In this document: positions 960 through 58,122 of the stretch, piece after piece
How the letters are laid out: each line of letters starts with the position of its first letter
Position numbering within the stretch: the stretch's first letter is position 1
Origin: a virus
DNA: 64,000 nt
IMG/VR virus record: IMGVR_UViG_3300027805_000011
Coordinates: 3,017-67,016 of that record
Reading direction: 5' to 3' (one strand)
The notes under the pieces: model-generated
What the model saw: only the letters and a program-made list of their open reading frames with translations
Databases searched by the model: none
Told to the model about the DNA's origin: nothing
Position numbers and translations under genes: made by a program

Positions 960-977
960 GCGGATTATGACCAAACT

Positions 978-1179
978 TGGGTAGAATCGTTCAAAATTCG
1001 ACATAACCGCACATAAAAATAATGAAACAATTCGTCGTAAACCACTGTCCGACAGAGAAATGGACAACCTGAAAATATGCAGCGCGCACGGGATTCGAAG
1101 CGGTGTGCCAAAATGCGTAAATCTCTGATGGGTAGAGAGATGTCAGCTATCAAATTAGGTCTCGACCCAATTCGACCCA
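978..1179. repeat. Four YTCKACCCA repeats, putative integrase arm-type sites
   Basis: Minus strand at 978-986 and 1129-1137; plus-strand tandem pair at 1161-1169 and 1171-1179. They flank the tRNA-like core. Confidence 0.6.
1078..1099 (-). mobile_element. Putative attP core: 3' fragment of a tRNA (T-loop plus acceptor 3' strand)
   Basis: The minus strand reads TTCGAATCCCGTGCGCGCTGCA. The 5' T-stem partner is missing, so this is not an intact tRNA. It lies between int and terL. Confidence 0.6.
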
Positions 1180-1192
1180 GCTTTTTAATTCC

Positions 1193-2971
1193 ATGTCTTT
1201 GATTTTAGTGAAATCCGGCATTCAACCGCCAGCCGGATCGTTTCAACGCTACGGCGCGTGGTGGCCGCAGCACACCGCGGACTGGGCGATTGAGTTGTTT
1301 TGTTTCCGCGGACTGGGCACCGAGGAAATGGAGGTTCTTCCGAGGGAGCAGCACTTCAAAAACGCCGCCCAAATGTTCTTCCACAAAAAGACGGAGAACT
1401 TCATTTGGCACCCTTGGGCGGAAGACATGCTCTACGAATGCTGTCACCACAAGTTTGTCGCCTTTGCGGGCTGCGGCTCTTCGGGCAAGTCGGAGTTTAT
1501 GGCGATCTGGGCTTTGCTCAACTGGCTGGCGGCTCCGTTTCATACGCTCTCGCTGGTGACGAGCACTTCGATCCGTGATGCGAAGAAGCGGGTGTGGGGA
1601 GCGGTGCAGCGGTATTGGCCCTGCATCAAACCCGTCGCTCCTGGCAAGCTGGCCGACACTCCGACTCCGGCGATCTATGTCATCCGGAATGGGGAGAGGA
1701 TGGAACAGGCTGGGGTGTATCTGATTCCGGCTGAAGCTAAGAAGACTTCGGAGGTCACCGGCAAGATGCGAGGCATGAAGGCTCACCGCGTCATTGTCGC
1801 GGCGGATGAGTTGAGTGAGTTGGGTCATGCGTTCTTGGACACGGCACTCTCGAACCTCTCGAACAACCCCGAGCTCCGCATCTGTGCCGCGGCCAATCCA
1901 GTCTCTTACTACGATCCGTTTGGCCGCTTTGCCGAGCCGAAAGACGGGTGGGGAAGTATTTCGGTCAACGATGATCGCTGGGACACAAAGATCGGCGGCA
2001 CCTGCCTACACTTCGACGCGCTGAAGAATCCGAACTACTTGGCCGGAGAGAACAAGTGGCCGATCCAGAAATGGGAAAAAATCGACGAGGCCCGCGAGCG
2101 GCTCGGGGAGGATAATCCGATCTTCTGGCGCGACTACCGGGGGTTTTGGCCTCCGCAGGCAGTTTCGAAAGCTATCTACTCGGAGGCAGAAATTGTCCGC
2201 TTCCAAGCCGATCAAAAGCCGGTATGGAAGGGCCGAGTCGAGCGCGTGGCCGGAATCGACCCTTCCTTTGTGAGCGGCGGGGACAGATGTGTGCTTTATC
2301 TCGGGAGTTTTGGCCAGAACAAAGATGGGGCGGACCAGGTATCATTTGATACTTTTCACTTCCTCGACGAGGAGGCGAGCAATCCGGAGCCGAGGACGTT
2401 TCAAATTGCACGGAAGATCCAGCAGATCGTCAACGAGGCGGGCGTTCCGTGGCGGAATGTCGGTGTCGACGTGACGGGCGGCGGTGTGCCGTTCTGCGAT
2501 GCACTTGCCACGGTGTGTGGCTCGAACGAATTTCAACGTGTCCACTTCGGCGGAGCCCCGTCGAGCCGATCGCTCTCGGCTTACGATTCCACCCCTGCCG
2601 ACGAAAAGTATGTCAACAAGGTCACCGAGCTTTGGTTCGGGGCCAAAGAGTTTTTGGCGAGCGGTCAGCTTCGCGGGATCGGTCCGGATCTCGCTCGGGA
2701 GATGACCAGCCGGAACTACGACACAAGGAAGTCCGGTTCGATGAAGGTCGTGGTGGAATCGAAGACCGACATGAAAGCCCGGATCGGTCGGTCGCCGGAC
2801 GTGGCCGATGCCGCCTTTGTCATGCTCGATGTCGTCCGCGAGCGGTTCGGGATGCGTCCTCCGCAGGAGGGTGGCAGCGGGAAAAGGGGCGGGCAGACGA
2901 AATGGAAGCAGGCGATGATGGGCGGGAGGTTTGCCCCGCGACGGTCACCGAGTTTGTTGACCTCGGTTTAG
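1193..2971 (+). CDS. terL: Terminase large subunit
   Basis: 592 aa with Walker A GCGSSGKS, Walker B VAADE, nuclease motifs GIDP...GGD and SPDVADA. Confidence 0.92.
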   Translation: MSLILVKSGIQPPAGSFQRYGAWWPQHTADWAIELFCFRGLGTEEMEVLPREQHFKNAAQMFFHKKTENFIWHPWAEDMLYECCHHKFVAFAGCGSSGKSEFMAIWALLNWLAAPFHTLSLVTSTSIRDAKKRVWGAVQRYWPCIKPVAPGKLADTPTPAIYVIRNGERMEQAGVYLIPAEAKKTSEVTGKMRGMKAHRVIVAADELSELGHAFLDTALSNLSNNPELRICAAANPVSYYDPFGRFAEPKDGWGSISVNDDRWDTKIGGTCLHFDALKNPNYLAGENKWPIQKWEKIDEARERLGEDNPIFWRDYRGFWPPQAVSKAIYSEAEIVRFQADQKPVWKGRVERVAGIDPSFVSGGDRCVLYLGSFGQNKDGADQVSFDTFHFLDEEASNPEPRTFQIARKIQQIVNEAGVPWRNVGVDVTGGGVPFCDALATVCGSNEFQRVHFGGAPSSRSLSAYDSTPADEKYVNKVTELWFGAKEFLASGQLRGIGPDLAREMTSRNYDTRKSGSMKVVVESKTDMKARIGRSPDVADAAFVMLDVVRERFGMRPPQEGGSGKRGGQTKWKQAMMGGRFAPRRSPSLLTSV

Positions 2972-2976
2972 TAGGA

Positions 2977-2990
2977 TATAATAACCGCAC
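2977..2990 (+). promoter_or_regulatory. TAATAAC-YSYRC motif (representative copy; about 17 in the window), putative phage promoter or translation-initiation element
   Basis: TATAATAACCGCAC lies directly before ATG 2991. Similar copies occur in sense orientation before many genes on both strands (see findings). Confidence 0.55.
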
Positions 2991-3176
2991 ATGCCGGCCT
3001 ATTACCCAGAAGGTGACACCCCGCTTTTGACCGACAGCTTTGAGCGCCTCCTGCACAAAGCGGTGTCGCTTTTGAGTGAGCAGAACGGCGGCACCGATGC
3101 GCCCGATCCAACCGACTCGGAGGAGACCCTCATGTTCAAGCTGGTGAAAAACCTGAACACCCTGATAAATGCCTAG
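2991..3176 (+). CDS. Small protein of the MPxY(Y/F)PE N-terminal family
   Basis: 61 aa, paralogous to the first 60 aa of the next gene. Confidence 0.75.
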   Translation: MPAYYPEGDTPLLTDSFERLLHKAVSLLSEQNGGTDAPDPTDSEETLMFKLVKNLNTLINA

Positions 3177-4146
3177 CTACTTTCCAGAAGGTAATACGCC
3201 ACGCCCGACCGACAGCTTCGAGCGGCTCTTGCAAAAAGCCGCGTCGTTGGTCAGCGCCCGCAATGGCGGGGCCGATGCCCCGTCGCCCGACGACTCCCGC
3301 GAGCGCACCATGTATAAGTTCGTCAGGGGCTTGAGCGCGTCGATCAGCGAATCGAGCAACCTGGACCCCGACGCCCTGGCCTATGCCGTGGCCAGCGGTG
3401 CGGCTGATGTCGTCGCCATCGACGCTTTCGTCAAAGGGGTCAAATCCCTCGGACTATGGAACAATATGGTGTGCTGGCCGCTTCGCAGTCGCCAGAACGC
3501 CGGAACAGGGACCGTGGTGCATAGTCTTGGTGGGTTGGGGACGTTTAATGGGACGCTGGTCAATGGGCCTGCTTGGGGTGCGGATGGCATCGACATCAAT
3601 GCGGCTATCTCGCCCACGCCGTCGATCAGCATCGACCCATCGCCGCTTTCCGATTTTGCCAACGGGCATTCGTGGTTTGTGGTGATGAAGCCTACTGGGC
3701 CAAATCCGGCAGGAGGCACATTTGACGACCAGTGGAGAGCTCTGCAAGCCGGAGTCGTCCTGCAAGCAGGAGCGACCGGAACAGGCGGCACAAGTGGGTG
3801 GATGGTTAACGCTAGAACGCAAACCGAGCGGAGGTATTCCCAATCAGCTATTTTAGGTTATGGATCAGTCCGCAACAACTTTGGCTTTGTAGCCACAAAC
3901 TCATCAAGCGGGTCTACGAGCTACAAATATGCGTTGGAAAATTTGACACCAGTCTCACCGCCAACAGGGACAACTGTTTTCTACAGCGGAACCAATTTGA
4001 GTATTACCGCGGCTGGATCAACCTCACGCAACACCAGCGCCTTCGTCCTTGTCACCACGCCGCAATTCAATTTGAGCGCATCGCTACAGACGGCGCTGGA
4101 GACCCTCTACAAATCAACACTAGGCACCGGCCTCGGCCTCCCGTAA
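3169..4146 (+). CDS. Putative virion accessory protein with lectin-like variable core (paralogue 1)
   Basis: 325 aa with MPSYFPE N-terminus. Shares IDAFVKGVK..LGLWN.MVCWPLR and the C-terminal LYK.TLGTGLGLP with 4149-5042. The core is Ser/Thr/Gly-rich. Confidence 0.65.
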   Translation: MPSYFPEGNTPRPTDSFERLLQKAASLVSARNGGADAPSPDDSRERTMYKFVRGLSASISESSNLDPDALAYAVASGAADVVAIDAFVKGVKSLGLWNNMVCWPLRSRQNAGTGTVVHSLGGLGTFNGTLVNGPAWGADGIDINAAISPTPSISIDPSPLSDFANGHSWFVVMKPTGPNPAGGTFDDQWRALQAGVVLQAGATGTGGTSGWMVNARTQTERRYSQSAILGYGSVRNNFGFVATNSSSGSTSYKYALENLTPVSPPTGTTVFYSGTNLSITAAGSTSRNTSAFVLVTTPQFNLSASLQTALETLYKSTLGTGLGLP

Positions 4147-38000: not shown

Positions 38001-41000
38001 ACACCAATCCCGAGGGTCGGGCGCGGGCCACAGCCATCCGGGATATCCAGATGTCGCGTGCCGCCAAGTTTGCCGGACGTGCCACCCGGCAGCAGACGGC
38101 CCTAGGGGATGACGCCGTCTTCGATACAGGCGCTTACGCTCTCTACATCAACCTCGATGCGCCGCACCCTAACGGCAGTCCGGTTGGGACCGTTCTCCAT
38201 GAGTTCAACCATGTGGTGCTCGACGCCAAGATCGACGGTCTGATCGAGCTCAATCCGACCGAGCGTGCCGCGCTGGAGCGGCTGCGGGCCGAACGCCGTG
38301 CTGCGGTGATCGAAGCCGCCCGCCGCCTCGACATCGACTTGCCGTCCAACCCGTCAGAGGCCGAGATCGATTCGGCGTCACAACAGATTTACCAGTTGGC
38401 TGAGACCATCACGCCGGAGCAGCTTGACGCCCTAGGAATCGACAACGCTCGCGCTCTCGATGCCCTGACCAGCGACCGGGAATTCGCCAACGACATCATC
38501 AGCCGGCCCGACGTGGCCGATCTCCTGGTGAACCTGGGTCGCGGCAAAGCCGGGGGCAAGCCGACCACGCTCCTAGGAGCCATCCGCAAAGCCTGGGACG
38601 CCCTGGTTGAATTGATCTCTGGAGTCAAAGCCGACCCGAACTCGCCGCTGGCGCGGGCTTTCAAGGACAGTTGGACTTTGGTCTACGCCAGCAACGGGGC
38701 AGAAATGGACGACACGTCCTTCACCATGCCCGAGGTGATGCGCTCCGAGCTTGCCGCCGAGATGCAGACCCAAGCCGAGGTCAACGCTTTCATCGAGCGC
38801 GAGCTCGACCGCCGCAATCTGGCCGGAACCGCCGAAGAGCGAAACCGCTTGCTCTCCGAGTTCCGTAAGGAAACCGAACCAGAAGCCCCAGCCCAAGAAG
38901 AGGGGGCGACCGAAGAGGACACCGAGATCGACGAGGAAGAGCAGCTTCGTCTGGCCCGCCAGCGGGTGCTCCGCGCGATGGGTATGGAGGGCCGTGAAGA
39001 CGATCCGGAGGTGTCGGCGTTCGATCCGGATGTAGTCAGTCGCGCCGTCGAAGTCATGTCCGAAAACGAATTCGTGCAGTGGGCGCAGGCCAACGGATTC
39101 CAGTTCCTCGACCCGCGTGCCGTTTACCGGAACACGATTCTGGAGAAAGCGATCCGCGATGCAGGAAAGCCTCCCGTCCCAAAGCAGAAGCAAAAACAGG
39201 CCAAGGCCGAACCCAAGAAAGAGGACGACGACACCGATCCGCCGCCTCCGCCTCCGGGCGGCAAGCCTCCTAGGAAGCCGCCGACGCAAACACCGCCCGG
39301 AAAAAGCCAAGCTCCTCCGACGCCCGCGCCGCCTCCACAACGCAGAGACCGCGGGACTCTCGGCGTAACCCCGCTGACACCCAAAGCCCGCGCCAAAAAA
39401 CTTTTGGATTCGATCCCCGAGGAAAACCGCGGGCAGTTCAAAACTTCGAAAGGTGATGTCCAAGCCGGAACCCGCATCTACAAACGGTCACGGGCCAAGG
39501 ATGGTTCACTGAAAGAAACCCGGTCCGGAGAGGTAAGTCAGTCCGTGCATTTCGTGACGCGGGTCGTAGGCGACAAAGTCTTCACCCTGCCAGCAATCAC
39601 TTTCGATTCAGGTTCGCGATCGGCGCAGTGGAACGACCAGCAGGAATACTCACAAAAAGATTTCCAAGATCTCGTCAAGAAAGGCGACATCGAGGTCGAA
39701 ACCGACCCCGCCCTTCCCGTGGGAAGAAGCGTCTACTCGCCAGAAGAAGGCCGCATGATTTCTGTTATGCCCGCCGCAACGCAGATAGATCCTGACGCCA
39801 CGGCCGGTGCTGCACCCGTCAATGAAAACGCGCCCGATTTTGTTGATGTGCCGCCTAGCGAATCCCGCATCGAAGCCTTCCGTCCAAGAGTCATCGAGCC
39901 GGTGACCAAAAAGACCTACACCGGCGGCACCTACACGATGAAGGGTATCCTGCGTTCAGTCTTCGAGTATCTCGATCCTAGGGCAGGGGATATGTGGCTC
40001 AAGAGCCGGGCGGCGATCAAGGCCGAGGCCAGCCGGGTTGACGATTTGGCGGACATCCTCAAGAAGCAGCTTTCCGAGTTGAAGAAGCAAGGCCAGGAGT
40101 TCTCCTCAGACCTTCTCAACACCGCCCTAGGAAACCTGGAGAACCCGCTGACCACCGATCAGATCAGGGAAATCGAATCTCTTTCCGGTGGCCGGACGAC
40201 TTTCACCGGAGAAGACGGCGAGACTTACACGACCGATCCCGCAGGCGAACTGCGTGACGAGTATCTCCGCGCCAACCGCAACGCTTTCCGTGCCAAGCAA
40301 CGTCTGGCCCTCAAAGAGCTTCCGGAAAACGTGGCCAGCACCATCGCCGAGATGTCGGCGCACATCGAATCGCTTTCCAAGAAACTTCCGAAGGAAGGCA
40401 TTGTCCACGGCGACCTCAAGATCACGGTCGACGAAGCCCTAGGAATTTATCTCAACCGCAGTTACGCAATCTTCGACGATCCGAAGTGGGCGGACAAAGT
40501 GAAGAAGAACGCTCCGGTCATCGCCGCGGCCCGCCGCTATATCAAAAACCAACTGGTCAAAGACAAGGCGAGCGAACTCTTTTCCATCGCGCAGGAAAGC
40601 GGAAGCCCGATCTCCAAGGAGGAGGCTTTGCGGCGAGCCGGTGAGGTCGTCATCGATGACGATGTGGAAACAGCTTTGGAAAGCTACTTGTCGGTCGGGC
40701 TCGACGCGCCGTCGATCGGCATCCTTTCCGGACGCATCCCCGGACAAAAGAATCTTTCGATCCTCTACAACCGCAAAAACATTGCCCCTGAGATTCAAGC
40801 TCTGTGGGGGCGTTACGACGATCCGACGATCAACTACGCCAAGTCCGTCCTCAAGCTGGCCTCATTAGTCTCCAACCACCAGTTCCTCAAGGAGCTCCGC
40901 GCCGAAGGTCTCAAGGAAGGCTGGCTCTGGGATCCCAACTCAAACACCGAAAAGCCGGTTGGGTTCCAGCGCATCGCGAGCGAGAAGAACCGCTCTCTCG

Positions 41001-42853
41001 AACCGCTGGCTGGCATGTATGCCATGCCCGAGTTCCTCCGCGGTTTGGAGACGGTCTTCTCTCCCGACACGCTGGAATCGCACAACTACTTGATGCGCTA
41101 CTTGACCAAAGCCACAGGCATCACGATGGGTATGCAGACGGTCGGTTCCTACGCGGCACAGGTCCGCAACTACTTGGGCAACTTTCTCAAGCTGCTGGCG
41201 ACAGGGAATTTGGGACTGGGCGACATCGCCAATCCCGAATGGCGCAAAAATCTGGCCTTCGCGCACCGCGCCGCCATCGCCGATGTTTTCAAGAGCTACG
41301 GGAAACAGGACCGCAAATTCTGGCGCAACGAGATCGACAAGCTCATTCGGCTCGGGGTCTTCGGCGAGTCGATCACCACCAACCTGATCGACGACTTGGT
41401 CGGCTTGAGCAAAGCGGCGACCGACGGGCAGTTCGACAACAAGTTCAACCAGATCATCGGACGCCCCGCCATGCAGATTGCCAAGCTGGCGCAGGATACC
41501 TATGCGGCTGGCGACAACATCTTCAAGGCGATGATCTTCTTCTCGGAGCGGGCCAAATACGCCAAAGCCATGCCCGAGCTCGACAAGCAAAACGTCGACG
41601 CCGAACTGGGCATCACCGACCTCGACCGCAAGGCCGCGCAGATTTCCCGCGACATTCACTGGACCTACTCGCTGGCTCCGCAGATCGTGCAAGATCTCAA
41701 GCGCGGTCCGGGCGTGTTCATCGCGCCGTTCATCACCTTCACCACCGAAGTCATCCGCACGACGATCAACACTTTCAACCTCGCACGGCAGGAGATTCGC
41801 GACGGGCGGGCCAGCGGCAACCAAGACCTCGAAGCGATCGGTTGGGGGCGCATCCGCGGTCTTACCGCGGCAGCATTGCTGCCCTCGGCGGTCGGCGCTG
41901 GTATCGCGGCTATGTTCGGGAACGACGGCGAAGATGAAGAAAACCTGCGCCGCTTCCTGCCCGACTGGCAGAAGAACAACCAGTTGGTCATGCTCGGTAA
42001 CGAAAACGGGAAGATCAGCTTCATCGACATGTCTTTCCTCGACCCGCACGAGTATTTCAAAAAGCCGCTCAAAGCCTTCTGGCGTTCCCTTACCGACGAT
42101 GACGCCACCGCCACCGAACGGATCAGCGGGTCAGTCATCAGCGCGGTCGGTGAAATACTCAACCCGTTTACTAGCGAGCAGATCTTCGCCGGAGCTATCG
42201 CCGACGTGGCCCGCAACCGCGACGAGGCCGGACGCCAAGTCTGGAACCCGCAGGACACCGCCGCCCGCAAAGGTATGGCTGTGGCCAACCACATCTTCAT
42301 TCAACCGTTTATGCCCGGCACCGGACGAAGCCTCGGACGTATCGGAGCCGCGGCGCTCGGCTGGCAGGGAGACACAGGGCGGGCTTACAGCCTACCCAAT
42401 GAACTGGCCAGCATGTTCCTAGGACAGCGCATCAGCCAAGTGGACGTCAATCAGGCCCTAGGGTTCTCGGTCAACCGTTTCCTCCGCGGTCAGCGGGACG
42501 CCTCGACCTTATTCACAAGAGAGTTCACCAGTGAGGGAACCCGCTCCCCCGCTGGGATTGTGTCGTCCTATGACCGGGCCAATGAAGCTCACCTCTCCCT
42601 GGTCTCGCAGATGCGGAAAGACTACAAAGCGGCCCTAGGGCTGGGCGGCATGACCGTGGACTCGACCCGCCGGAAGATGAAAGAGGCCGGCATGGGTAAG
42701 GAGAGTATCAAAGAAGTAACCACCGGCATCTTCACGCCCTACCAAGCCAGCAAAGAAATGGTCGATAGCGTCCGCCGCCGCGGTCTCAACGACCGGATCA
42801 ACGCCTACGAACAGGCTCGCGACATGGTCCCGCAGCGAGAAGTCCTGCAATAA
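32006..42853 (+). CDS. Giant internal virion protein (large polyvalent-type) with zincin HExxH motif
   Basis: 3615 aa. Gly-rich membrane-like helices at about 32.3-33.3 kb, VLHEFNH at 38198-38212, Pro-rich linker at about 39230-39340, LPD38-like C-terminus (inferred). Confidence 0.7.
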   Translation: MAIRDTINLLTEDEPLELLDTFRSRRESFDEPATLDLASDPEAEAQDFADMPQEPVEMPPDETERAERRRQAMDEFYSDPTNIEGLQENDDELPGEGVGLARFRPSAGEEYGIGLRRGGKQLQGLAGGFIGLVSDALGIEAGADWGLEQYRSAMEEAAESEAFITDPFEQIDGIGDAGLYAAGLLGEQTYQLMSSVLGAGIGYGVGRSIANRVIANEIGKRTAAGLTKEAAEKAVRDEVTENALRVASIPVSEKGFSKGGAITGAYLTNFGMISGGTYGQIEEETGLRDPGTAAAFSAGGAALDTLGEVFLASKFLKPFSRGVEAKPGISLPAKPRTVGGVARSAGLGALTGGAVEGGVEGAQTGIEQAAVGAADPDQTIGERLAAPGASRERAIAAAAGFTVGGALGGPGGVLEALAPKTAQKIRDKGTQENQEQEQPAPSELPGDWSETITVGGLPMRYSEAIDQWAVVNPPENFPNTTNLADGTRVYLVPERTSSGQALSQAARARLSALRGENVEGIEDFTEDEQQEEEGEETELTPFSANTPVLFKPFDGDTQLKAIVRGYDADGNAEIDVFDPENVLGAPEGKARTNLAPWWSEKSGLTQPERTQPENVGEIETARGGLSIGPRIVARREVVSKDQLGRLALDAEAQLTDEQRQRQETLKAELLARRAKPGLDVSDDESSVDAEQEQIDEAQQRDRGESEAFINSLDPGTPVSVIRFNPEGRTTLGRNDGQRFEDAFFLRRLSNGNALFQLRPVRRADQRTSEVPPKGGSREQLEPGVEFQGASPRKEFVAERTANMIELKPSEFNLVTFRGLPTSRPANPIDDQINDIVAALGGNPSGQELAAALGTIYEGPGFPTRSFFRDGVATGNNPGIGIRWRNKRDGSPEKVGQSYGIFGLRWMGEEGTAGRPEKVEMPQIPRKQRQGEDRAAAAERYGREMGTYKNTLDGLALNTLRQMDRGLVVEVEGGFEVERMLRDPLRTFELEQIPDTRRATYQEPSKSGRSTVTRTRPRRFRVTAVRWRGNIARQGKNPLDFSISAALDPLSPEAESRARQQLKETGETDYRPSQVAGTQRGLGILKDIYRFDLRRREQSETAQGTSQTSLTRLLQQSRMTDAQLREAGKTREQVEKELADLGTAIVERPDVGIGKLREFAQRTQSGRYEFVATSEARLRAIELSGGREPNKAQLDRAIDETLAAENLTRDEVITALTEFDKSVEFLASLDPDARNVVEKLLTDVDNYVNASRQVPTRTPGTARADILDLALVRAKNTRLRDIRMAIERAKKKGGRPIQNLSVRDRGNIMRLYLEALDEIRAERADKRVQAEETKIYGGTRGRSDQIQQLLAEAREAGIQDAATILDRKTPIDKARRLIAEARRGMRRTERSVAPGAGQAQRLMRDIENVVERGGVSGVPDAKSVFERMEALVESGAIPQAKKDLVRTNLLNETQANLEKDFKEAKARVIKKLENDQSRYRDEPARDVFPREKTSKSGKSIAAKRVPARRVLTVPTAQIRAEYDYLENIPKVFGDLLKKNPFFTVVDAVRSAARSLESQQRLGRAESMPQGEPAPAQSQQELLEETNRPDRFGMDAPNFARREYWRRVEDLDNVFGNGARALLFRGFGLTESGKRAVTQGKANQFYRAFLEMTETGKLSPKTLRRWSARKNFPAGDRARFIRILDYLIDPNQYGRRTAQPAARAVGASTQPLTVAQPGVAGDPRTQRGVAPRPDSGPITRGLSAEQLMAGTGESRPEGSARQDGVGGPVGAGGTAASGPGTVRDGAAGGVRGPGIRVASQPRTIRTLSRAATRRLVGLAGRSAGLTDAELAAIPDEEIRRAYVALMTTADQTATLAGRNAIGQSPVPMAERFTQTGEQLLTAAAKENADYMANKQRVDRLRQNIGLALRARAFGNPSEFFKAVAADNQQPANLRMLAKEFLKLQGRGLDIDGVALQVGAFGRNFNSDPITEKEIKSKIRLKDGVYTVSTSAGKVTHSGTPDTNPEGRARATAIRDIQMSRAAKFAGRATRQQTALGDDAVFDTGAYALYINLDAPHPNGSPVGTVLHEFNHVVLDAKIDGLIELNPTERAALERLRAERRAAVIEAARRLDIDLPSNPSEAEIDSASQQIYQLAETITPEQLDALGIDNARALDALTSDREFANDIISRPDVADLLVNLGRGKAGGKPTTLLGAIRKAWDALVELISGVKADPNSPLARAFKDSWTLVYASNGAEMDDTSFTMPEVMRSELAAEMQTQAEVNAFIERELDRRNLAGTAEERNRLLSEFRKETEPEAPAQEEGATEEDTEIDEEEQLRLARQRVLRAMGMEGREDDPEVSAFDPDVVSRAVEVMSENEFVQWAQANGFQFLDPRAVYRNTILEKAIRDAGKPPVPKQKQKQAKAEPKKEDDDTDPPPPPPGGKPPRKPPTQTPPGKSQAPPTPAPPPQRRDRGTLGVTPLTPKARAKKLLDSIPEENRGQFKTSKGDVQAGTRIYKRSRAKDGSLKETRSGEVSQSVHFVTRVVGDKVFTLPAITFDSGSRSAQWNDQQEYSQKDFQDLVKKGDIEVETDPALPVGRSVYSPEEGRMISVMPAATQIDPDATAGAAPVNENAPDFVDVPPSESRIEAFRPRVIEPVTKKTYTGGTYTMKGILRSVFEYLDPRAGDMWLKSRAAIKAEASRVDDLADILKKQLSELKKQGQEFSSDLLNTALGNLENPLTTDQIREIESLSGGRTTFTGEDGETYTTDPAGELRDEYLRANRNAFRAKQRLALKELPENVASTIAEMSAHIESLSKKLPKEGIVHGDLKITVDEALGIYLNRSYAIFDDPKWADKVKKNAPVIAAARRYIKNQLVKDKASELFSIAQESGSPISKEEALRRAGEVVIDDDVETALESYLSVGLDAPSIGILSGRIPGQKNLSILYNRKNIAPEIQALWGRYDDPTINYAKSVLKLASLVSNHQFLKELRAEGLKEGWLWDPNSNTEKPVGFQRIASEKNRSLEPLAGMYAMPEFLRGLETVFSPDTLESHNYLMRYLTKATGITMGMQTVGSYAAQVRNYLGNFLKLLATGNLGLGDIANPEWRKNLAFAHRAAIADVFKSYGKQDRKFWRNEIDKLIRLGVFGESITTNLIDDLVGLSKAATDGQFDNKFNQIIGRPAMQIAKLAQDTYAAGDNIFKAMIFFSERAKYAKAMPELDKQNVDAELGITDLDRKAAQISRDIHWTYSLAPQIVQDLKRGPGVFIAPFITFTTEVIRTTINTFNLARQEIRDGRASGNQDLEAIGWGRIRGLTAAALLPSAVGAGIAAMFGNDGEDEENLRRFLPDWQKNNQLVMLGNENGKISFIDMSFLDPHEYFKKPLKAFWRSLTDDDATATERISGSVISAVGEILNPFTSEQIFAGAIADVARNRDEAGRQVWNPQDTAARKGMAVANHIFIQPFMPGTGRSLGRIGAAALGWQGDTGRAYSLPNELASMFLGQRISQVDVNQALGFSVNRFLRGQRDASTLFTREFTSEGTRSPAGIVSSYDRANEAHLSLVSQMRKDYKAALGLGGMTVDSTRRKMKEAGMGKESIKEVTTGIFTPYQASKEMVDSVRRRGLNDRINAYEQARDMVPQREVLQ
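37077..37475 (+). CDS. Candidate nested (overprinted) acidic protein in an alternative frame of the giant gene
   Basis: 132 aa, with an AT-rich start context and a protein-like Leu/Glu/Asp pattern. The host frame becomes Gly/Arg/Ala-rich low complexity over this span. Confidence 0.5.
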   Translation: MDAEQPNQRPAQSEPQRNPSPSPNRESQEILGPNGESPLDPIVAPLLAAYLLNNSWPELASRVPKDLLDRMGSGDQLALGELLQADPELFETEPLEAFEDLAFESLLNPERSELSPEQLPDDSSDSPDEVPV

Positions 42854-52757: not shown

Positions 52758-53209
52758 TGGTCCTCCAAGTGCGTGATGTAAGAGCGGGGAGCAACAACGC
52801 CGCCCGAATCAACAATAGGCACCGGACTCCACTCGAAACTGTAGACACGCACCGCATCGCAGACGGGTTTGTCGCCGCATCCTGCGTTCCATTTATATGC
52901 GGGCAGAATATCCGGTTCGTAGTCCCTGCCGAGATGGCGCAAAAGCCACGGCGAGGACGGTATGAGGTAGTCGCCGGAATCGGCATCGACCTCGGGGCAA
53001 ATGTTGCCACGGTCACGCCCGAACGGCGTGTTGAGTTGGATGTGGAGATCGTTGGCATCCTCTTGCCATGCGTAGCGCACGGGTAAATTGAGATGACAAC
53101 AATCGGGACGGTCCTCGTAGCCGGTGCTGCGGCACAGGAGCGCCAGATAGAGCATCCTAGGACGACCGTCACGGACTTTCGGATTAGTGGAGCGATTAGA
53201 TTTGTTCAT
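52736..53209 (-). CDS. Hypothetical protein
   Basis: 157 aa; alternative start at 53155. Confidence 0.5.
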   Translation of the reverse strand: MNKSNRSTNPKVRDGRPRMLYLALLCRSTGYEDRPDCCHLNLPVRYAWQEDANDLHIQLNTPFGRDRGNICPEVDADSGDYLIPSSPWLLRHLGRDYEPDILPAYKWNAGCGDKPVCDAVRVYSFEWSPVPIVDSGGVVAPRSYITHLEDHWNSPNR

Positions 53210-53741
53210 AATTCATACTGTAAACGGGTTGGGGTTGAGGTTTGGACTTGCCGAGCGGGACAAGACGGGGTGCCGTGGAGAACACGACTCGGTAGTCTTG
53301 CGGGTTGGGCATGGCGACAAGCTGGGCTACGGCAGCGGACTCATCACTGAACACGCGGGTCGTGGCGGTGCCGGTGTCGTCGGCCTCGGCGTAGTCCTCC
53401 CAGCCGAACAAGGTGCGTGTCTGCAACTTGAACTGAGTGAACTCCGGTTCGCGGGGCTTGCTCTTGACGGTGCCGGAGTTGAACGCACTGAGCGGTGAAG
53501 CTCCGTCGAACTCTGTGTTTGTGTAGACGACATGGCTGGCGGCGCGGTCGGTTGCGACCTCGTCGCACTGGATCAGGCAACGGTGGTAACTGGTGCCGTT
53601 GTTATTCGTGGCGCTGCCAGCAACTCCGCGAACGAAGTTCTGGACATCGGTGAGAACCAACTCGGTGATGTCGTCCGAGTTTTCAAGATCGGCGACCGGA
53701 ATGTGCAGGTAAGTCCTGATGATACGATAATGTTGTGGCAT
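53196..53741 (-). CDS. Hypothetical protein
   Basis: 181 aa, with a palindromic box 28 nt upstream. Confidence 0.6.
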   Translation of the reverse strand: MPQHYRIIRTYLHIPVADLENSDDITELVLTDVQNFVRGVAGSATNNNGTSYHRCLIQCDEVATDRAASHVVYTNTEFDGASPLSAFNSGTVKSKPREPEFTQFKLQTRTLFGWEDYAEADDTGTATTRVFSDESAAVAQLVAMPNPQDYRVVFSTAPRLVPLGKSKPQPQPVYSMNYEQI

Positions 53742-53790
53742 GGTTGTTTTTCTTTCCTAGGGTTGCGTTGTTCGGACGCGAACAAGCGGG

Positions 53791-54996
53791 TCAGGCATCA
53801 GCCGTGAGGCCCGCTGTCGTGTAGATGCTGCGCCGCACAAGGTATTTGTGCAGGTGGGGATACAGCTTGATGTTGTCGAGGACGTAGCGCAGGAACGGCT
53901 GCGGCGTCTCGATGTCGCCGATGGCGTGGTTGGCCGGAGCACAGAACCCGATGAGTGCCGCGCAGAACTCCAAGTTCTTGCGGAACGAGTCGGGGTTGAG
54001 CGTCCCGCGGAAGATGCGGAGCTCGGCAGTGCGGCGGGTCAGGTTGAGTGCAACGTGGCGTTCGTTGCCGTATTCTTTCTTGGCATCGCTGATCTTCTTG
54101 CCGCCCTCGCGTTTGCACCAGTCGTTCATTTGCTCGAAGGTGCGTCCGGCGATGGTCTTGACCAGCGCGGCGTTGTTGTGGTGATTGACCCAGACCAGCA
54201 TCTTGCCCAGTTGCAACTGGGAGAGTGCGGCACGGGTCATGTGGACGTGCATACCGCAGTTACCGTTGGTCCAGCTTGTCATACGCTTGGAAGCGTCCTC
54301 GATGAAGCCGGTCCACTTGCGTTGGTGAACGTCGAGGGTGTCGGGTCGGGTCACCATCTCGAAGCCGCGCTCGCTGTCGAGCGAAGCGTCATGCTTGAGG
54401 ATGATGTAATCGTGGGTGAAGTGCTGGTAGATCTTGTCGATCTCCGGCTGGATGTTGAATCCGCGTTTCACCTCGACCTCCAACTCGATGCCGAAGAACA
54501 GCGGACCTTTGCCCTCGGGCATCTTGGATGCGATGGACTTGTCGCTGTAGGGGAAGATGATGTTGTTGCCACGACCGGGCTGATACCCGTCATCGTCATC
54601 ATCTTCCGGCTCCGAGCAGTGCGTGCAGTAGCCGTCACCGTCGAGATCCTCGGACCAATACTGGTCACCGCAACTCTCGCAGGAGCTCGCGTTCTCGTTG
54701 AGGTATTCGTGCGAATACCAGACACCGTGGAAGCGTTCACCGTCTCCGGAGAGATAGAACTCGTCGGTGCCGGTGCACCAGTGAGCATCTTCTTCCAGAG
54801 CGTAATCACCATCGTGCAGGCAGACGATTTCGTGGTGATCGCGAACAGCCCAGTCGCCGTCATGCAACTCGCGAAGGTTCTCGTCGTTGAGGTAGGCGAA
54901 GGTGCCGTCGAACAATTCGACAACCTCGGCGGAGGTTGCCGTGATGAGTTCACCCGAATAGAGGGTGAAGGTGGATTGACTAACCGTGTTAGGCAT
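53791..54996 (-). CDS. Putative amidoligase (COOH-NH2 ligase type 2)
   Basis: FGIELEVE, KHDASL..GFEMVT.P, CGMHVH and ELRIFRGT, with an acidic Cys/His-rich N-terminus. Confidence 0.82.
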   Translation of the reverse strand: MPNTVSQSTFTLYSGELITATSAEVVELFDGTFAYLNDENLRELHDGDWAVRDHHEIVCLHDGDYALEEDAHWCTGTDEFYLSGDGERFHGVWYSHEYLNENASSCESCGDQYWSEDLDGDGYCTHCSEPEDDDDDGYQPGRGNNIIFPYSDKSIASKMPEGKGPLFFGIELEVEVKRGFNIQPEIDKIYQHFTHDYIILKHDASLDSERGFEMVTRPDTLDVHQRKWTGFIEDASKRMTSWTNGNCGMHVHMTRAALSQLQLGKMLVWVNHHNNAALVKTIAGRTFEQMNDWCKREGGKKISDAKKEYGNERHVALNLTRRTAELRIFRGTLNPDSFRKNLEFCAALIGFCAPANHAIGDIETPQPFLRYVLDNIKLYPHLHKYLVRRSIYTTAGLTADA

Positions 54997-55068
54997 ATGT
55001 TTTTGTGTGGGTTGTGCGTTGTTCGTTTCCGAACAAGGCGGGTGGTTGTGGTGTTACGGAGTTATTAC

Positions 55069-55992
55069 TTACTGCTCTCCGTTGAACTCGAAGTTGAGAC
55101 CGAACATTTCGGTCTCTTTCTTCTCATCGATCTCCTCGTAGTGCTCCATGAGGAGTTCGTGCATCTCGGACGGGTCGTCGGCGAAGCCGCGTTCGATGTC
55201 GGCCTCGAGGTAGCCGAAGCGAAGCAACTCGTCGGCGATCCATTCCATATCGACCGGAACGTCCGGACCCCAAGCGCCGAGCGGCAGAACCTCGGGGTCG
55301 TAATCGGGGAACGATTCGGTTTCCGATGACGCCCTAGGATTGCGGTCGTCGCGCTCCGGTGTGCCGCGTCCGCCGTAAGACGAACTGCGGTATCCGCCCC
55401 AGTAATCGTCGTCGTATTTGTAAGACGAGTAACCGGAATAGCGGATTACCTTGGTCTTGTATGCCGAGTTGGAATACCAGTGACCATCGTCCTCCCAGAC
55501 GCCGGCATTGTCGTTCCAGATGGCGAAGTCGCCGTCGGAGCGAAGGAAGGCAAACTTGCTGCCGTCGATGGCGAGGCTCCCCAGATAGGAGATCGCATCG
55601 TGACGGTAGAACTCGGTGTCGAGTTCATACAGCGGCTTGAGAACCTTCTCGACGAAGTGCCAAGTGTCCGACTTGTCCTCGTTGTCCTTGGTGCATATCG
55701 GCAGGATGCCGTTATGGATCGTGGCGAGGTTGTCGGCGACGAGGAACGGGTGGCAGTTGTCCGCATCGCGCTTGCCGTGGGTGGCATAGCGGAAGTGGAT
55801 GAGTGCGTCAGCGTCAGCGTAGGGCTGGAACGCTTCCCAGAACTCGTCGAACTTGAAGAACCCCTTGGAGACGACCAAGCAACCGTTGGCGACAGCGGCG
55901 AAACCGGCACCGTGTTCATTGGAATTGAAACCGTTGCGGTATGCCTCCTCGTCGGGCTTGGTGGCGGCGGGTTTGTATATTGCTAAACACAT
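55069..55992 (-). CDS. Class II (Ntn) glutamine amidotransferase
   Basis: MCLAI (Cys at position 2), N.HG.G, HFRYATHG, NCHPF, HNG and SDT. Confidence 0.88.
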   Translation of the reverse strand: MCLAIYKPAATKPDEEAYRNGFNSNEHGAGFAAVANGCLVVSKGFFKFDEFWEAFQPYADADALIHFRYATHGKRDADNCHPFLVADNLATIHNGILPICTKDNEDKSDTWHFVEKVLKPLYELDTEFYRHDAISYLGSLAIDGSKFAFLRSDGDFAIWNDNAGVWEDDGHWYSNSAYKTKVIRYSGYSSYKYDDDYWGGYRSSSYGGRGTPERDDRNPRASSETESFPDYDPEVLPLGAWGPDVPVDMEWIADELLRFGYLEADIERGFADDPSEMHELLMEHYEEIDEKKETEMFGLNFEFNGEQ

Positions 55993-56141
55993 AGGCGTGT
56001 TATTCCTTTCTTTGACTGTGCGAACGGGTGGATTGATCCGTTGACCGATGTTCGCGGGCGGACAACGGAACCTTGTTCGGATGTGAACAAGAATCCGCAC
56101 CCTCGAAGGGAAGGTGCGGTGCTTGCACACTTACGGGGTTA

Positions 56142-56234
56142 TTACTTAGTCAACTCGATGAGCAGCCAGACGAGCAGGAAGGCGAGGAGGGCGAGCTTGA
56201 ACAGGACCTCATCGACGATGTCGCGGTGTTTCAT
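56142..56234 (-). CDS. Tiny membrane peptide
   Basis: 30 aa, MKHRDIVDEVLFKLALLAFLLVWLLIELTK. Confidence 0.45.
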   Translation of the reverse strand: MKHRDIVDEVLFKLALLAFLLVWLLIELTK

Positions 56235-56235
56235 A

Positions 56236-56415
56236 TTAGTCGGCGGTGTAGAACCCGATGGTGTGGCCGTCAGTCGGCGTGTAGGTGGGCAACGCAGCGG
56301 CAACCGCATACAACTTGCGAAGTTTGCGGCGGCGCTTGATCGCCCTAGGACGCCAGATGACGTCGTCGGACTTGGCCTGCGGTTCGGGGGCAAGCCAGCG
56401 TGTTTTGTTCTTCAT
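56236..56415 (-). CDS. Small basic protein
   Basis: 59 aa, with SD GAAAGGA directly after a palindromic box. Confidence 0.6.
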   Translation of the reverse strand: MKNKTRWLAPEPQAKSDDVIWRPRAIKRRRKLRKLYAVAAALPTYTPTDGHTIGFYTAD

Positions 56416-56445
56416 GGTGTTCCTTTCTTGTTCGGATGCGAACAA

Positions 56446-56676
56446 CTAGGGGTTGGTGATGAAGTTCATGGGGATCGCCGAAGCGAACGGATTACCCATG
56501 AACACCGGAGCGGCCTCGTAGGTGACCTTCAAGCCGAACTCCTGCTCCCGCTTGAGAGCTTTGAGTTCGCCTGCCTTGTCACGGTAGTGGTCCGCGATTT
56601 GATGAGGCTCGATGTAAGCCTCGTTGATGAAGTGCATCGACTTGATGCACGTTTGTTTCTTCATGCGTTTTGGCAT
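56446..56676 (-). CDS. Hypothetical protein
   Basis: 76 aa, with SD GAAAGGA. Confidence 0.6.
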   Translation of the reverse strand: MPKRMKKQTCIKSMHFINEAYIEPHQIADHYRDKAGELKALKREQEFGLKVTYEAAPVFMGNPFASAIPMNFITNP

Positions 56677-56790
56677 GTTGGTCCTTTCTGTGCTGTGCCG
56701 CAGAGGGCGGCGGAAAGTGGACTTGTTCGGATACGAACAAGCGACGACGCGGAACGGATGGGACGTTTCCGCGCCGGATGCTGATTCGTC

Positions 56791-56931
56791 CTAGGACGAA
56801 CAATGGATCTCGGTGAGCAATTCACCGCACAACTCTTCCAAGTCGTCGGCGAGTTCAGTCTGCCAAGCGAGTTGGCGATAGACGTTGCTCGATGAGCAGG
56901 AGTAATCCTCGTAATAGGCAGGAGGTTTCAT
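56791..56931 (-). CDS. Small acidic hypothetical protein
   Basis: 46 aa. Its stop lies inside the perfect palindrome TTCGTCCTAGGACGAA. Confidence 0.4.
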   Translation of the reverse strand: MKPPAYYEDYSCSSSNVYRQLAWQTELADDLEELCGELLTEIHCSS

Positions 56932-57069
56932 GCTGCACTTTTCATGGTTCATGCTGCGCGGAACACGCAACATGCTTGTCGGTTCAATGGACAAGGTTCA
57001 GTGCAGGACCGAAGCCCTGCACTGATGCGCTGTCCACTTGTTCGGATGCGAACAACGGACCCTCGTGGC

Positions 57070-57468
57070 TTACTTCTTATTGATGTTGTAAGCGCGGTTG
57101 AGGATGGATGCGACTTTGTCGCGGGTTTTGTATTGGCGGCGCAACTTGCTGACTAACTCCTGCGCGGCGAGCGTGACCGCTTCGCTTTCCTGTTTGCGTT
57201 TCGCTGTCTTGCTGCGTTCCTGATTGCGCGGCTGGATGAACCCATAGGGCTTGAGGATCTCCCATGCGCGGACGCGGCTGATCTTATGCTCGTTGGTGAG
57301 CACGGCACGCAGCGCCTTGCCAGCGGCTAGACGCTCGTCCTTGTCCATGCCATCGGCGAACGCGGCGACGATGGCGCGAGCGGCATCGAGTGCGTTAGCG
57401 TAAGCGGTTTCGAGTTTGAACGCCTGTGCGATGGCAGAGGCGACTGCTTTGACTGTCGGTTTTTTCAT
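57070..57468 (-). CDS. Basic helical protein, first gene of the leftward early block
   Basis: 132 aa, with a palindromic box 17 nt upstream. Confidence 0.65.
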   Translation of the reverse strand: MKKPTVKAVASAIAQAFKLETAYANALDAARAIVAAFADGMDKDERLAAGKALRAVLTNEHKISRVRAWEILKPYGFIQPRNQERSKTAKRKQESEAVTLAAQELVSKLRRQYKTRDKVASILNRAYNINKK

Positions 57469-57597
57469 GTGTTTTTATTTTGCTTGTTCGGATGCGAACA
57501 GTCGCATCAGACCGATGCTGCTTTCCTGTCCGCTTCAACCGATAAGTGGCAGAGAGTGGCATTTTACTCTGTTATTTTTCTGCTAGGTTATGTTCGG

Positions 57598-58122
57598 ATG
57601 CGAACACTGGAAAAAGACTGGAAGAGTATGAAGGCTCTCTATGTAGCCGGAGCAACTTATGCGGAACTTGCTGAAGCTTATGGAGTTAAAGAGGGAACAA
57701 TCAGAGTTAGATCCTCCCGCCAAGGATGGACCAAGTTAAGACCTGTAGTAACTGATGATGCAGCCCTAGGGAAAATATGGGACATCAGAAGGGAAAAGGT
57801 GAAGGAGGGAGAGTTCAAGATTGCAGAGAGAATCATGGACCATGCAGCGCAAATGCCTCCAGATCAGTTAGTTGCGAAAGCAGACAAGGTGAAGATTGGA
57901 GTTGACCTAGGACGCAGATCTGTAGGATTGGACAGAGATGAGGATAAGAATATGGTGAACATAGCACTTTTAGGTGCAATCCCATCGGCGACAGAGACTT
58001 ACAACGTAGAAAGCCGCCAGATGAGTTGGTCAGAATTGGGTCGAAATACTCTGGACAACAGTGTAGAGCACACGGATTCACAATCCGTAGACCACCACCC
58101 AACCCACCACGGTCCCCTCTGA
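57598..58122 (+). CDS. Terminase small subunit-like HTH protein
   Basis: DW..MKALY..G....ELAEAYGVK..TIR.R..R.GW is the HTH pattern typical of terS. ATG 57598 lies inside the palindrome at 57591. Confidence 0.55.
   Translation: MRTLEKDWKSMKALYVAGATYAELAEAYGVKEGTIRVRSSRQGWTKLRPVVTDDAALGKIWDIRREKVKEGEFKIAERIMDHAAQMPPDQLVAKADKVKIGVDLGRRSVGLDRDEDKNMVNIALLGAIPSATETYNVESRQMSWSELGRNTLDNSVEHTDSQSVDHHPTHHGPL

Follow-up and report, generated by a model that had tools for sequence, protein, structure and literature searches.

The window analysed here is a 64,000-nucleotide stretch from the 71,476-bp genome of an uncultured freshwater phage, and it contains a minus-strand early block whose genes are punctuated by copies of one short palindrome, termed boxes below (Table 1). 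The first early gene, which we call c10, is followed by glutamine-amidotransferase-like and amidoligase-like genes together with small open reading frames of 60, 76, 59 and 30 aa and one of 181 aa.

Table 1. Boxes, genes and control elements of the early region, in window positions unless stated
Feature	Position	Strand	Remarks
Divergent TerS-like/HTH gene	57598..58122	+	
Box 1	57590..57607	-	GTGTTCG-CATC-CGAACAT; overlaps probable start codon (57598, +) of the divergent TerS-like/HTH gene
TAACAGAGTAAA	57563..57574	-	Control region upstream of c10; conserved across all relatives
Box 2	57484..57501	-	CTGTTCG-CATC-CGAACAA; c10 start codon 15 nt downstream
c10 gene	57070..57468	-	First early gene; 132 aa, all-helical; predicted homodimer; proposed box-binding regulator
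Box 3	57038..57055	-	Perfect 18-mer; c10 stop codon 14 nt before
Box-punctuated early genes	53196..56973	-	
Box 4	56723..56740	-	Centre TATC; ATG at 56676 lies 46 nt downstream
Box 5	56428..56445	-	Perfect 18-mer; abuts TAG stop of upstream gene; 12 nt ahead of ATG 56415
Box 6	56073..56090	-	TTGTTCA-CATC-CGAACAA, one mismatch; just past terminator-like hairpin 56095-56119
Box 6b, degenerate	56048..56065	-	TTGTCCG-CCCG-CGAACAT; 7 nt beyond box 6
Glutamine-amidotransferase-like gene	55069-55992	-	Early block
Box 7	55019..55036	-	Centre GAAA; upstream of amidoligase-like gene
Amidoligase-like gene	53791-54996	-	Early block
Box 8, last	53768..53785	-	Centre CGTC; precedes 181-aa gene starting 53741
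Integrase-like protein	Genome 2764-4083, partly window 3-1067	-	PHROG integrase match, E 2.3e-15

Scanning the window for TGTTCG-N4-CGAACA gave seven exact copies (53769, 55020, 56429, 56724, 57039, 57485 and 57591) against a shuffle mean of 0.01, with seven reached in 0 of 100 shuffles, and two copies with a single mismatch (56049 and 56074) complete the nine palindromes that the earlier note had placed ahead of early genes. Its further observation that five boxes extend to 18 bp was confirmed by five perfect TTGTTCG-N4-CGAACAA sequences (53768, 55019, 56428, 56723 and 57038). At up to two mismatches the scan returned three additional matches (34062, 41991 and 51846), consistent with the chance expectation of 3.77, and no box copy was found beyond positions 53768-57607 in the whole genome, extending to that scale the confinement to 3.8 kb first noted in the window. 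All nine boxes occupy gaps separating minus-strand genes of a single operon-like block, including those upstream of the six gene starts already listed (53741, 54996, 55992, 56415, 56676 and 57468). Conservation extends to the 4-nt centre: read along the coding (minus) strand, CATC occurs six times, alongside CGTC, TATC and one flipped GAAA, with CCCG in the degenerate copy, an orientation bias of 8:1. The close relative L050 has the centre TTTC, which in reverse complement gives the GAAA of box 7.

For the control region of the relatives, we observed that TAACAGAGTAAA is followed by a single promoter-like motif, CTGCTGGTCACTT, which is degenerate in this phage; the relatives seemingly possess one promoter-like motif, upstream of the entire early operon. 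A sigma-70 scan identified no minus-strand promoter anywhere in the early block, including beside the boxes, and a terminator scan of the block yielded one terminator-like hairpin, ahead of box 6. Among the assembled contigs of one metatranscriptome run, three short contigs fell in the region, one of them crossing box 4 but reaching just 30 nt past it in one direction, and this contig is uninformative on transcript starts or ends.

Focusing on related phages, a set to which a metagenome scan contributed one further locus, we found that those with primases 73-81% identical carry a different dyad-symmetric box in the same places, with nine box types counted at the same junctions. The arms differ among relatives through compensated double substitutions; an orthologous junction whose flanks are conserved has CGC/GCG, CCG/CGG, CCT/AGG or TCGC/CCGA in its box, depending on the phage. 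Over 70 boxes, 90% of cells pair between the arms compared with 68% in shuffles, both sides have changed in 5 of the 7 arm pairs, and the arm covariation score of 0.50 (0.17 when shuffled) was attained by 0 of 500 shuffles. While the centres are conserved within a phage, they are found as reverse complements, AATC and GATT at 3:3 and further as GAAC/GTTC, ATCAC/GTGAT and GTGAC/GTCAC; in four box types the centre is a complete palindrome (AATT twice, TTAA and GTAC), and a fifth has a 5-nt centre, RTSAY, that is palindromic about its middle base. Centres that are palindromic or occur in either orientation are the signature of a double-stranded site whose reader is two-fold symmetric. Two scans of reference genome contigs found no prophage copy or host.

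The protein family whose variation follows these boxes is c10, the first early gene in every palindrome-type locus. A c10 profile matched G002 and G003 and 0 of the 3 complete relatives without palindromes; these three likewise have no c10. Across 19 loci, nine c10 clades correspond one to one to the nine box types, a match that stems partly from linkage since the gene is flanked by two boxes. Only two cases are independent, a natural swap and a chimera. In the swap, the early genes of L008 and L016 are 96.6, 93 and 99.5% identical, with near-identical flanks, and the boxes differ at their centres alone, while the c10 proteins are only 34% identical; in the chimeric c10 (P0002), box type tracks the central part of the protein and not the C-terminus. 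Within the conserved c10 helix NGYxKQ-, arginine goes with GTCCG boxes, aspartate with GTCGC or GTCGG, and lysine with GTCCT, natural variation that probably singles out this helix as the recognition helix. In a comparison of six genomes, variation in a giant 3615-aa protein and in three small ORFs had also seemed to go with the boxes, and c10 is preferred over these on the presence/absence pattern and the natural swaps.

The homodimer model of c10 scored 0.71, a mark attained by 20 of 30 proteins with structures of same-chain pairs and by 1 of 23 with single-chain structures, whereas the best of three controls scored 0.00. Dimer runs had at least 96% of contacts in common, with partner pLDDT of at least 79. 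No known DNA-binding fold or family was found in c10 using Pfam, PHROG and PDB, fold searches (PDB, BFVD and a wide VIA search) returned weak helical matches at most, and tblastn with c10 and the early region gave no match in GenBank phages. The c10 alignment is without a conserved stretch. The earlier note saw no clear repressor gene in the window, a view we revise in that the best candidate is the protein encoded at 57070-57468, which was already on its EMSA list. The TerS-like/HTH protein (57598), another of its candidates, is excluded as the specificity determinant by the comparison of relatives: L016, L019 and the palindrome-less phages share its recognition helix and have differing motifs, and L011 and L019 have the same box and a different HTH.

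With moderate confidence, we interpret the boxes as double-stranded DNA operators of a symmetric c10 homodimer that would throttle c10 itself and block RNA polymerase at the gene junctions. The array, the dyad covariation, the independence of orientation and the match of clades to box types are observed, and the dimer is predicted. That c10 binds the boxes is suggested by covariation; the outcome of binding is a second step, probably autoregulation together with early-operon shut-off or a roadblock, and we infer repression by c10 rather than activation. The compensated changes, two-way centres and c10 covariation likewise favor, from comparative sequence evidence, the proposal in the earlier note of a gene-by-gene operator array with a phage-encoded reader. 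Transcription would enter from the control region beside the divergent HTH gene, so that c10 is made first; accumulating c10 would fill the two boxes ahead of its own gene and then the one box ahead of each later early gene. Its occupancy would limit its own synthesis, and RNA polymerase would be blocked at every junction, producing either early shut-off or, in the manner of stoperators, a graded roadblock. Because no sigma-70-like promoters were found beside the boxes, c10, if it is a repressor, must work mainly as a roadblock. Weighing against the operator interpretation are the 8:1 orientation of the centres in this phage, the searches that detected no DNA-binding fold or family in c10, and inner mismatches that are more often A.C than G.T.

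Covarying arms would also be expected of RNA stem-loops in a polycistronic early transcript, possibly bound by c10 and acting in processing, stabilization or translational control, for which the intergenic RNase III sites of the T7 early region are the model. The boxes are indeed intergenic, in sense orientation and immediately ahead of ribosome-binding sites, the single promoter-like motif of the relatives would serve the whole operon, and the RNA-library contig crosses box 4, though by 30 nt only on one side. However, centres are conserved only if reverse complements count as equivalent, and reverse complementation alters an RNA loop; the inner mismatches on the coding strand are mainly A.C (about 10), which do not pair in RNA, and not G.U (G.T, 2-3). 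In addition, hybrid boxes with broken pairing persist, the 7-bp stem is shorter than RNase III needs, and duplex DNA better fits a symmetric dimer, leaving this explanation unlikely.

The excess of A.C mismatches would also be explained by a template-strand DNA hairpin, as in phages N4 and LUZ7; a phage polymerase or initiation factor reading the boxes as extruded hairpins of this kind would give each early gene its own promoter. Early promoters in those phages have stems of 4-7 bp and loops of 3 nt, some in tandem, with nine in LUZ7 and transcription beginning 11-14 nt past the centre of the loop (PMC4496689, PMC9163698). The boxes resemble them in anatomy, being short inverted repeats rich in GC that precede early genes, and the genome too is podophage-like, roughly 70 kb in size and coding for a protein of ~3600 aa, here a virion-type protein of 3615 aa; moreover, the distance from box to ATG is never under 5 nt, and relatives without c10 have a probable promoter motif at equivalent positions. 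N4 and LUZ7 have a virion RNA polymerase, whereas none is detectable here: the 3615-aa protein is without T7/N4 polymerase motifs and without DxDxD, has HExxH, and matched no solved polymerase in the PDB by sequence or by a 6-sequence profile. The stem length does fit, but loops of 4-5 nt contrast with the 3 nt of N4 and LUZ7, and centres found in both orientations within one phage, several of them palindromic, are incompatible with directional reading of a loop. We dropped this interpretation, which we regard as improbable, once searches by motif, Pfam, PDB and profile had revealed no polymerase in the giant protein. A genome search with PF00940 lacked a working control.

That same promoter-like motif, occupying the box positions in relatives without c10, would also suit c10 as an activator or sigma-like adaptor, each box then being a c10-dependent delayed-early promoter. 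This would agree with c10 being made first and with an early block that has no other visible promoters. The element is nevertheless symmetric and used in either orientation, and half of the boxes lie no more than 35 nt from the next ATG, leaving no space for a -10 element and start site; those only 5-12 nt from the next ATG have no room to be upstream activator sites. An activating role for c10 seems quite unlikely.

Cassette exchange is seen at the boxes, and the alternative raised in the earlier note, that the boxes are recombination sites bounding exchangeable cassettes, would have an integrase-like protein as their reader. Early gene content is almost wholly different among relatives, foreign boxes sit within arrays, hybrid boxes exist and move with cassettes, a metagenomic variant begins to diverge at 55015, 4 nt from box 7, and this phage has a PHROG integrase match. 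The integrase-like protein is, however, 87% identical between G000 and G002 despite their differing boxes, nine active direct repeats would delete the intervening genes, and the 4-5 nt centre is under the 6-8 bp of tyrosine recombinase overlap regions. Recombination would also leave the tracking of boxes and c10 unexplained, and boxes have been converted in place beside near-identical genes, which argues for a trans-acting reader and not for simple junction scars. The association of foreign and hybrid boxes with cassettes stands, but exchange at the boxes is a side effect, and recombination as their function is very unlikely. A host regulator such as LexA, suggested by the half-site TGTTC/GAACA of the Verrucomicrobiota LexA box (TGTTC-N4-GAACA), is a highly improbable reader, since the boxes have N6 at that position and close relatives with replication proteins 75-96% identical carry nine different boxes that follow the phage gene c10.

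The operator arrangement proposed for c10 resembles the stoperators of Cluster A mycobacteriophages, which together with operators are read by L5 gp71 and the TipsytheTRex repressor (PMC9283540, PMC6550527). In both, one short site recurs many times in the narrow gaps between genes of phage operons, site and protein have evolved jointly into distinct specificities (here nine clades and types in 19 loci), and a single phage-encoded reader has been proposed to block initiation and elongation. By comparison, Cluster A stoperators are asymmetric 13-mers with orientation locked to transcription (PMC9283540), whereas the boxes are dyad 18-mers in either orientation; the Cluster A reader is a two-domain monomer, an immunity repressor of the gp71 family, whereas c10 is predicted to dimerize and resembles it in neither sequence nor fold. 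The boxes, unlike the Cluster A sites, stay within the early block, and the gene for their candidate reader opens the very operon that it would control. The site itself comes close to TGTTCGG-N3-CCGAACA, a dyad repeat of 17 bp in Cluster O mycobacteriophages, for which a dimeric DNA-binding protein was proposed, with reader and function left unexplained (PMC4351075). The two share the TGTTCG half-site, dyad symmetry, many intergenic copies and a centre without consistent orientation relative to transcription. Cluster O phages, however, have over 30 copies spread across the genome, with roughly a third falling within genes, compared with nine here, all intergenic in one early block; the Cluster O spacing is one base longer than the 4-nt spacing of the boxes, and a covarying candidate protein is available only here. 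Lambda Cro would provide a functional parallel, as a small dimer from the first early-operon gene that lowers early transcription, with pseudo-palindromic sites in a divergent control region. Cro operators are clustered at promoters (OR and OL), whereas the boxes stand at every gene junction; no similarity between c10 and Cro was detected.

Repeated short palindromes have previously been noted in phage early regions without a reader, and the Cluster O repeat is still unexplained; here, natural variation indicates a small orphan family as the reader, together with nine matched pairs of site and protein. Such pairs might represent at least nine mutually orthogonal specificities acting as a single-gene immunity or kin-discrimination system within one freshwater lineage, a possibility that we consider doubtful. 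Autoregulated c10 would then stay on at a low level, and serial roadblocks would multiplicatively silence the downstream early genes, both the phage's own and those of a superinfecting phage with the same box type. If true, immunity of this kind would push box and reader to diversify, and boxes arriving on imported cassettes would have to be converted in place. The locus offers a directly testable system for how a phage shuts down or grades an early operon in its entirety, how the specificity of a DNA-binding protein shifts in step with dozens of its target sites, and how a recipient phage takes control of imported gene cassettes. If the pairs truly do not cross-react, they would provide a ready-made small set of orthogonal regulators.

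The array itself bore out what the earlier note had described, nine palindromes of the form TGTTCG-N4-CGAACA in a block of minus-strand early genes and none beyond it. Seven exact copies were found in the window, compared with 0.01 in shuffled sequence, and tolerating mismatches added two more; three further such matches elsewhere in the window are in line with a chance expectation of 3.8. The window comprises bases 3017-67016 of a viral record of 71,476 bp that is rated complete, and across this entire genome all copies fall within 53768-57607. On the coding (minus) strand the element reads TTGTTCG-CATC-CGAACAA, with five copies being perfect 18-mers, and every copy is intergenic and flanked by minus-strand genes. 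A half-box overlapping the stop codon of a 60-aa ORF retains the left arm, while the right arm is swapped for a CCTAGG-centred palindrome.

A primase search retrieved 16 viral contigs (73-81% identity), all of which lack the TTGTTCG-CATC-type box of this phage, and each carries a repeated motif of its own at the corresponding position, on the downstream side of the HTH gene (encoding a TerS-like protein divergent from the early block) and before each early gene. Taken together with contigs reached through homologs of c10, the family encoded by the first early gene, these relatives yielded nine dyad-symmetric box types, and neither of the complete palindrome-type relatives has boxes outside the early block. 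No palindromes were found in three complete relatives (G001, G004 and G005); these relatives, which lack c10, instead carry the asymmetric motif TGCTGGCCTCTTAAT in 13-16 sense copies, located 3-10 nt ahead of start codons that have no Shine-Dalgarno sequence. The relative G003 combines palindromic boxes with three TGCTGGCCTCTTAAT motifs located farther along the same block. In many relatives, and weakly in this phage, the second or third box is followed by stretches of a 7-nt periodic repeat (GAACCNT or CATGAAC).

Coordinates of the boxes, related motifs and neighbouring genes (window positions unless marked; L, loci or contigs of relatives; A, box types)
Feature	Sequence or order	Location	Strand	Remark
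One-mismatch boxes		56049, 56074		
Box before ATG 56415	stop codon, box, 12 nt, ATG		-	
Box before ATG 57468			-	15 nt upstream of ATG
Half-box	TTGTTCG-TCCT-AGGACGA	56786-56803	-	
A1	TTGTTCG-CATC	this phage, L050		
A2	TWGTCCG-RTSAY	L008, L018, L049		
A3	TTGTCGG-AATT	L012, L052, L056		
A4	TTGTCCGG-AATT	L016		
A5	GAGTCGC-AAAC or GATT	L011, L019, L059, L054		
A6	RAGTCCG-TTAA	L015, L055, L058		
A7	GAGTCCG-GAAC	L051		
A8	TTGTCCG-TGCCA	L057		
A9	GAGTCCT-GTAC	L053		
Arrays in c10-less relatives	TGCTGGCCTCTTAAT	L007:14680-21332, L020:14573-21719, L014		
Mixed block of G003		C1:5147-6881		
7-nt repeat runs	GAACCNT / CATGAAC	L007:15226-15300, L019:15303-15335, L011:9231-9269		
7-nt repeat, this phage		about 56930-56965	-	weak
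Control region	TAATAATCGCACAA, TAACAGAGTAAA, single CTGCTGGTCACTT (also given as CTGCTGGTCACTTATTAATG)	L008, L012, L016, L019, L051-L059		upstream of c10
Control motif, this phage	TAACAGAGTAAA	57563-57574	-	
Genome-wide motif	TAATAAC-YSYRCA	2979, 6971, 13927, 17059, 27056, 50729, 55061, 56138, 62069 and others		
Amidotransferase-like and amidoligase-like genes		53791-55992	-	adjacent
HTH gene		57598-58122	+	
3615-aa ORF		32006-42853	+	HExxH at residues 2065-2069
Integrase-like gene		3-1067, continuing to genome 2764-4083 (L065:65-1384)	-	439 aa

In an alignment of 70 boxes, pairing cells accounted for 90% compared with 68% in shuffles, both members varied in five of the seven arm pairs, and covariation scored 0.50 against 0.17, with no shuffle and no slid register coming close. 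One orthologous junction has conserved flanks and a box whose arms read CGC/GCG, CCG/CGG or CCT/AGG, depending on the phage. Such covariation of the arms would be expected equally from a hairpin or from recognition by a protein with two-fold symmetry. We favour duplex DNA that would be read by a dimer, because the centres flip, are palindromic in several types, and hybrid boxes joining arms from two types persist. Within a phage, centres are conserved apart from their orientation, with reverse-complement forms both present (AATC and GATT, 3:3, in L054; GAAC and GTTC in L051; ATCAC and GTGAT, and likewise GTGAC and GTCAC, in L008), and a GAAA centre in this phage corresponds to TTTC in L050. 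The centres of four types are full palindromes (AATT twice, TTAA and GTAC), and RTSAY, 5 nt long, forms a palindrome about its middle base. Inner mismatches on the coding strand comprise about 10 A.C and 2-3 G.T, an excess that weakly fits hairpins of the template strand, with small numbers from sites that are not independent, and that argues against the boxes acting as RNA hairpins. The boxes resemble the hairpin promoters of N4 and LUZ7 in look, but neither the polymerase nor the fixed orientation of those systems is matched here. An N4-like phage using hairpin promoters had been suggested by the 3615-aa ORF and was dropped, as the protein has no T7/N4 polymerase motifs and no DxDxD, and searches of Pfam and PDB gave no match, including those made with a six-sequence profile. 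Its HExxH motif is invariant, its C-terminal third (about 900 aa) is conserved, and it resembles a polyvalent ejected protein.

As for the protein that reads the boxes, the HTH protein was rejected: L016 and L019, which have different box types, and the palindrome-less phages share the same recognition helix, while L011 and L019 have the same box with different helices. The integrase-like protein is 87% identical between genomes G000 and G002 though their boxes differ. The first early position in every palindrome-type locus belongs to c10 (131-143 aa, this phage's member sharing 24-34% identity with the rest), and a profile of 49 members matches G002 and G003 and none of the three palindrome-less relatives. 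The 69 database homologs form clades that correspond one to one with box type in the 19 loci for which both could be assigned, a match that is partly linkage because c10 lies between two boxes. Two cases exceed linkage. Between L008 (A2) and L016 (A4), the downstream early genes are 96.6, 93 and 99.5% identical and the flanking DNA is near-identical with differences only in the box centres, and the c10 proteins are 34% identical. Secondly, the residue following KQ in a conserved c10 helix is R with GTCCG, D with GTCGC or GTCGG, and K with GTCCT, and the chimeric homolog P0002, A6-like in its centre and A5-like at its C-terminus, is accompanied by boxes with an A6-like core. The predicted c10 structure is all-helical (pLDDT 85), and fold comparison of the model gave no informative match. 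Modeling supports a c10 homodimer, with a score of 0.71 compared with 0.00 for the best of three controls, a mark attained, among solved proteins, by 20 of 30 pairs of one chain and 1 of 23 single chains; contacts agreed at ≥96% between runs with partner pLDDT ≥79. We thus regard c10 as the probable reader, with some room for doubt.

All relatives have a conserved control region ahead of the first box and c10. This phage keeps TAACAGAGTAAA, its box 1 occupies the place of the relatives' TAATAATCGCACAA, and its last motif is degenerate; TAACAGAGTAAA is inverted in c10-less phages. The CTGCTGGTCACTT motif is related to the repeated motif of those phages. TAATAAC-YSYRCA is spread genome-wide, often exactly 5 nt ahead of ATG (e.g., TAATAAC-CGCAC-ATG), with two copies placed 30-50 nt ahead of boxes 6 and 7. 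Both it and TGCTGGCCTCTTAAT often stand 3-10 nt ahead of a start codon that has no Shine-Dalgarno sequence, a placement suggesting that TAATAAC-YSYRCA is a promoter for leaderless transcripts and that TGCTGGCCTCTTAAT is probably an early promoter class yielding leaderless mRNAs.

The first 127 bases of the record are repeated close to its end, which marks the assembly as circularly permuted, and the sequencing runs bearing the phage came from lakes and other fresh waters. Its early block encodes small ORFs and glutamine-amidotransferase-like and amidoligase-like proteins; the latter two genes are each preceded by their own box and a TAATAAC motif, and L019 encodes homologs of both. Upstream on the opposite strand, the HTH protein has weak similarity to terminase small subunit and sigma region 4. 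By ortholog alignment its start is most likely ATG 57598, which falls in the middle of box 1, such that a protein on box 1 would cover that start. The integrase-like protein matches the PHROG integrase family (E 2.3e-15) with sub-threshold Pfam integrase matches only, and the phage may be temperate; two scans of reference genomes found no prophage copy.

The earlier note had also proposed that the boxes are recombination sites delimiting exchangeable cassettes, and the findings fit this as to the movement of cassettes rather than as to the function of the boxes. Early genes of this phage have almost no homologs in relatives. Foreign boxes occur within arrays: L008 has an A4 site, L054 an A8 site and L015 A7-like sites. 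Of the metagenomic variants, one diverges at 4 nt from box 7 and a second contains indels within box 1; cassettes therefore travel with their boxes, which are later converted to the resident phage's type, as a consequence of the system.

Among known systems, the stoperators of Cluster A mycobacteriophages are the closest functional analogue, although they are asymmetric, orientation-locked and monomer-bound (PMC9283540), unlike the boxes here. The unexplained 17-bp repeat of Cluster O mycobacteriophages, TGTTCGG-N3-CCGAACA, shares its half-site with the boxes of this phage and, like them, has no fixed orientation of its centre, but its copies are scattered over the whole genome (PMC4351075), with no reader named. 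The symmetric boxes studied here are most likely operators of a c10 dimer. Half lie 5-35 nt from the next ATG, and a Shine-Dalgarno sequence usually follows the boxes, which leaves no room for activator-dependent promoters, and no sigma-70-like promoter was seen beside them. From this anatomy we infer that the early block would be transcribed mainly from its upstream end, that c10 would be made first and then feed back on its own boxes, and that at each gene junction it would block polymerase, a full repressor or roadblock model to which we give an even chance.
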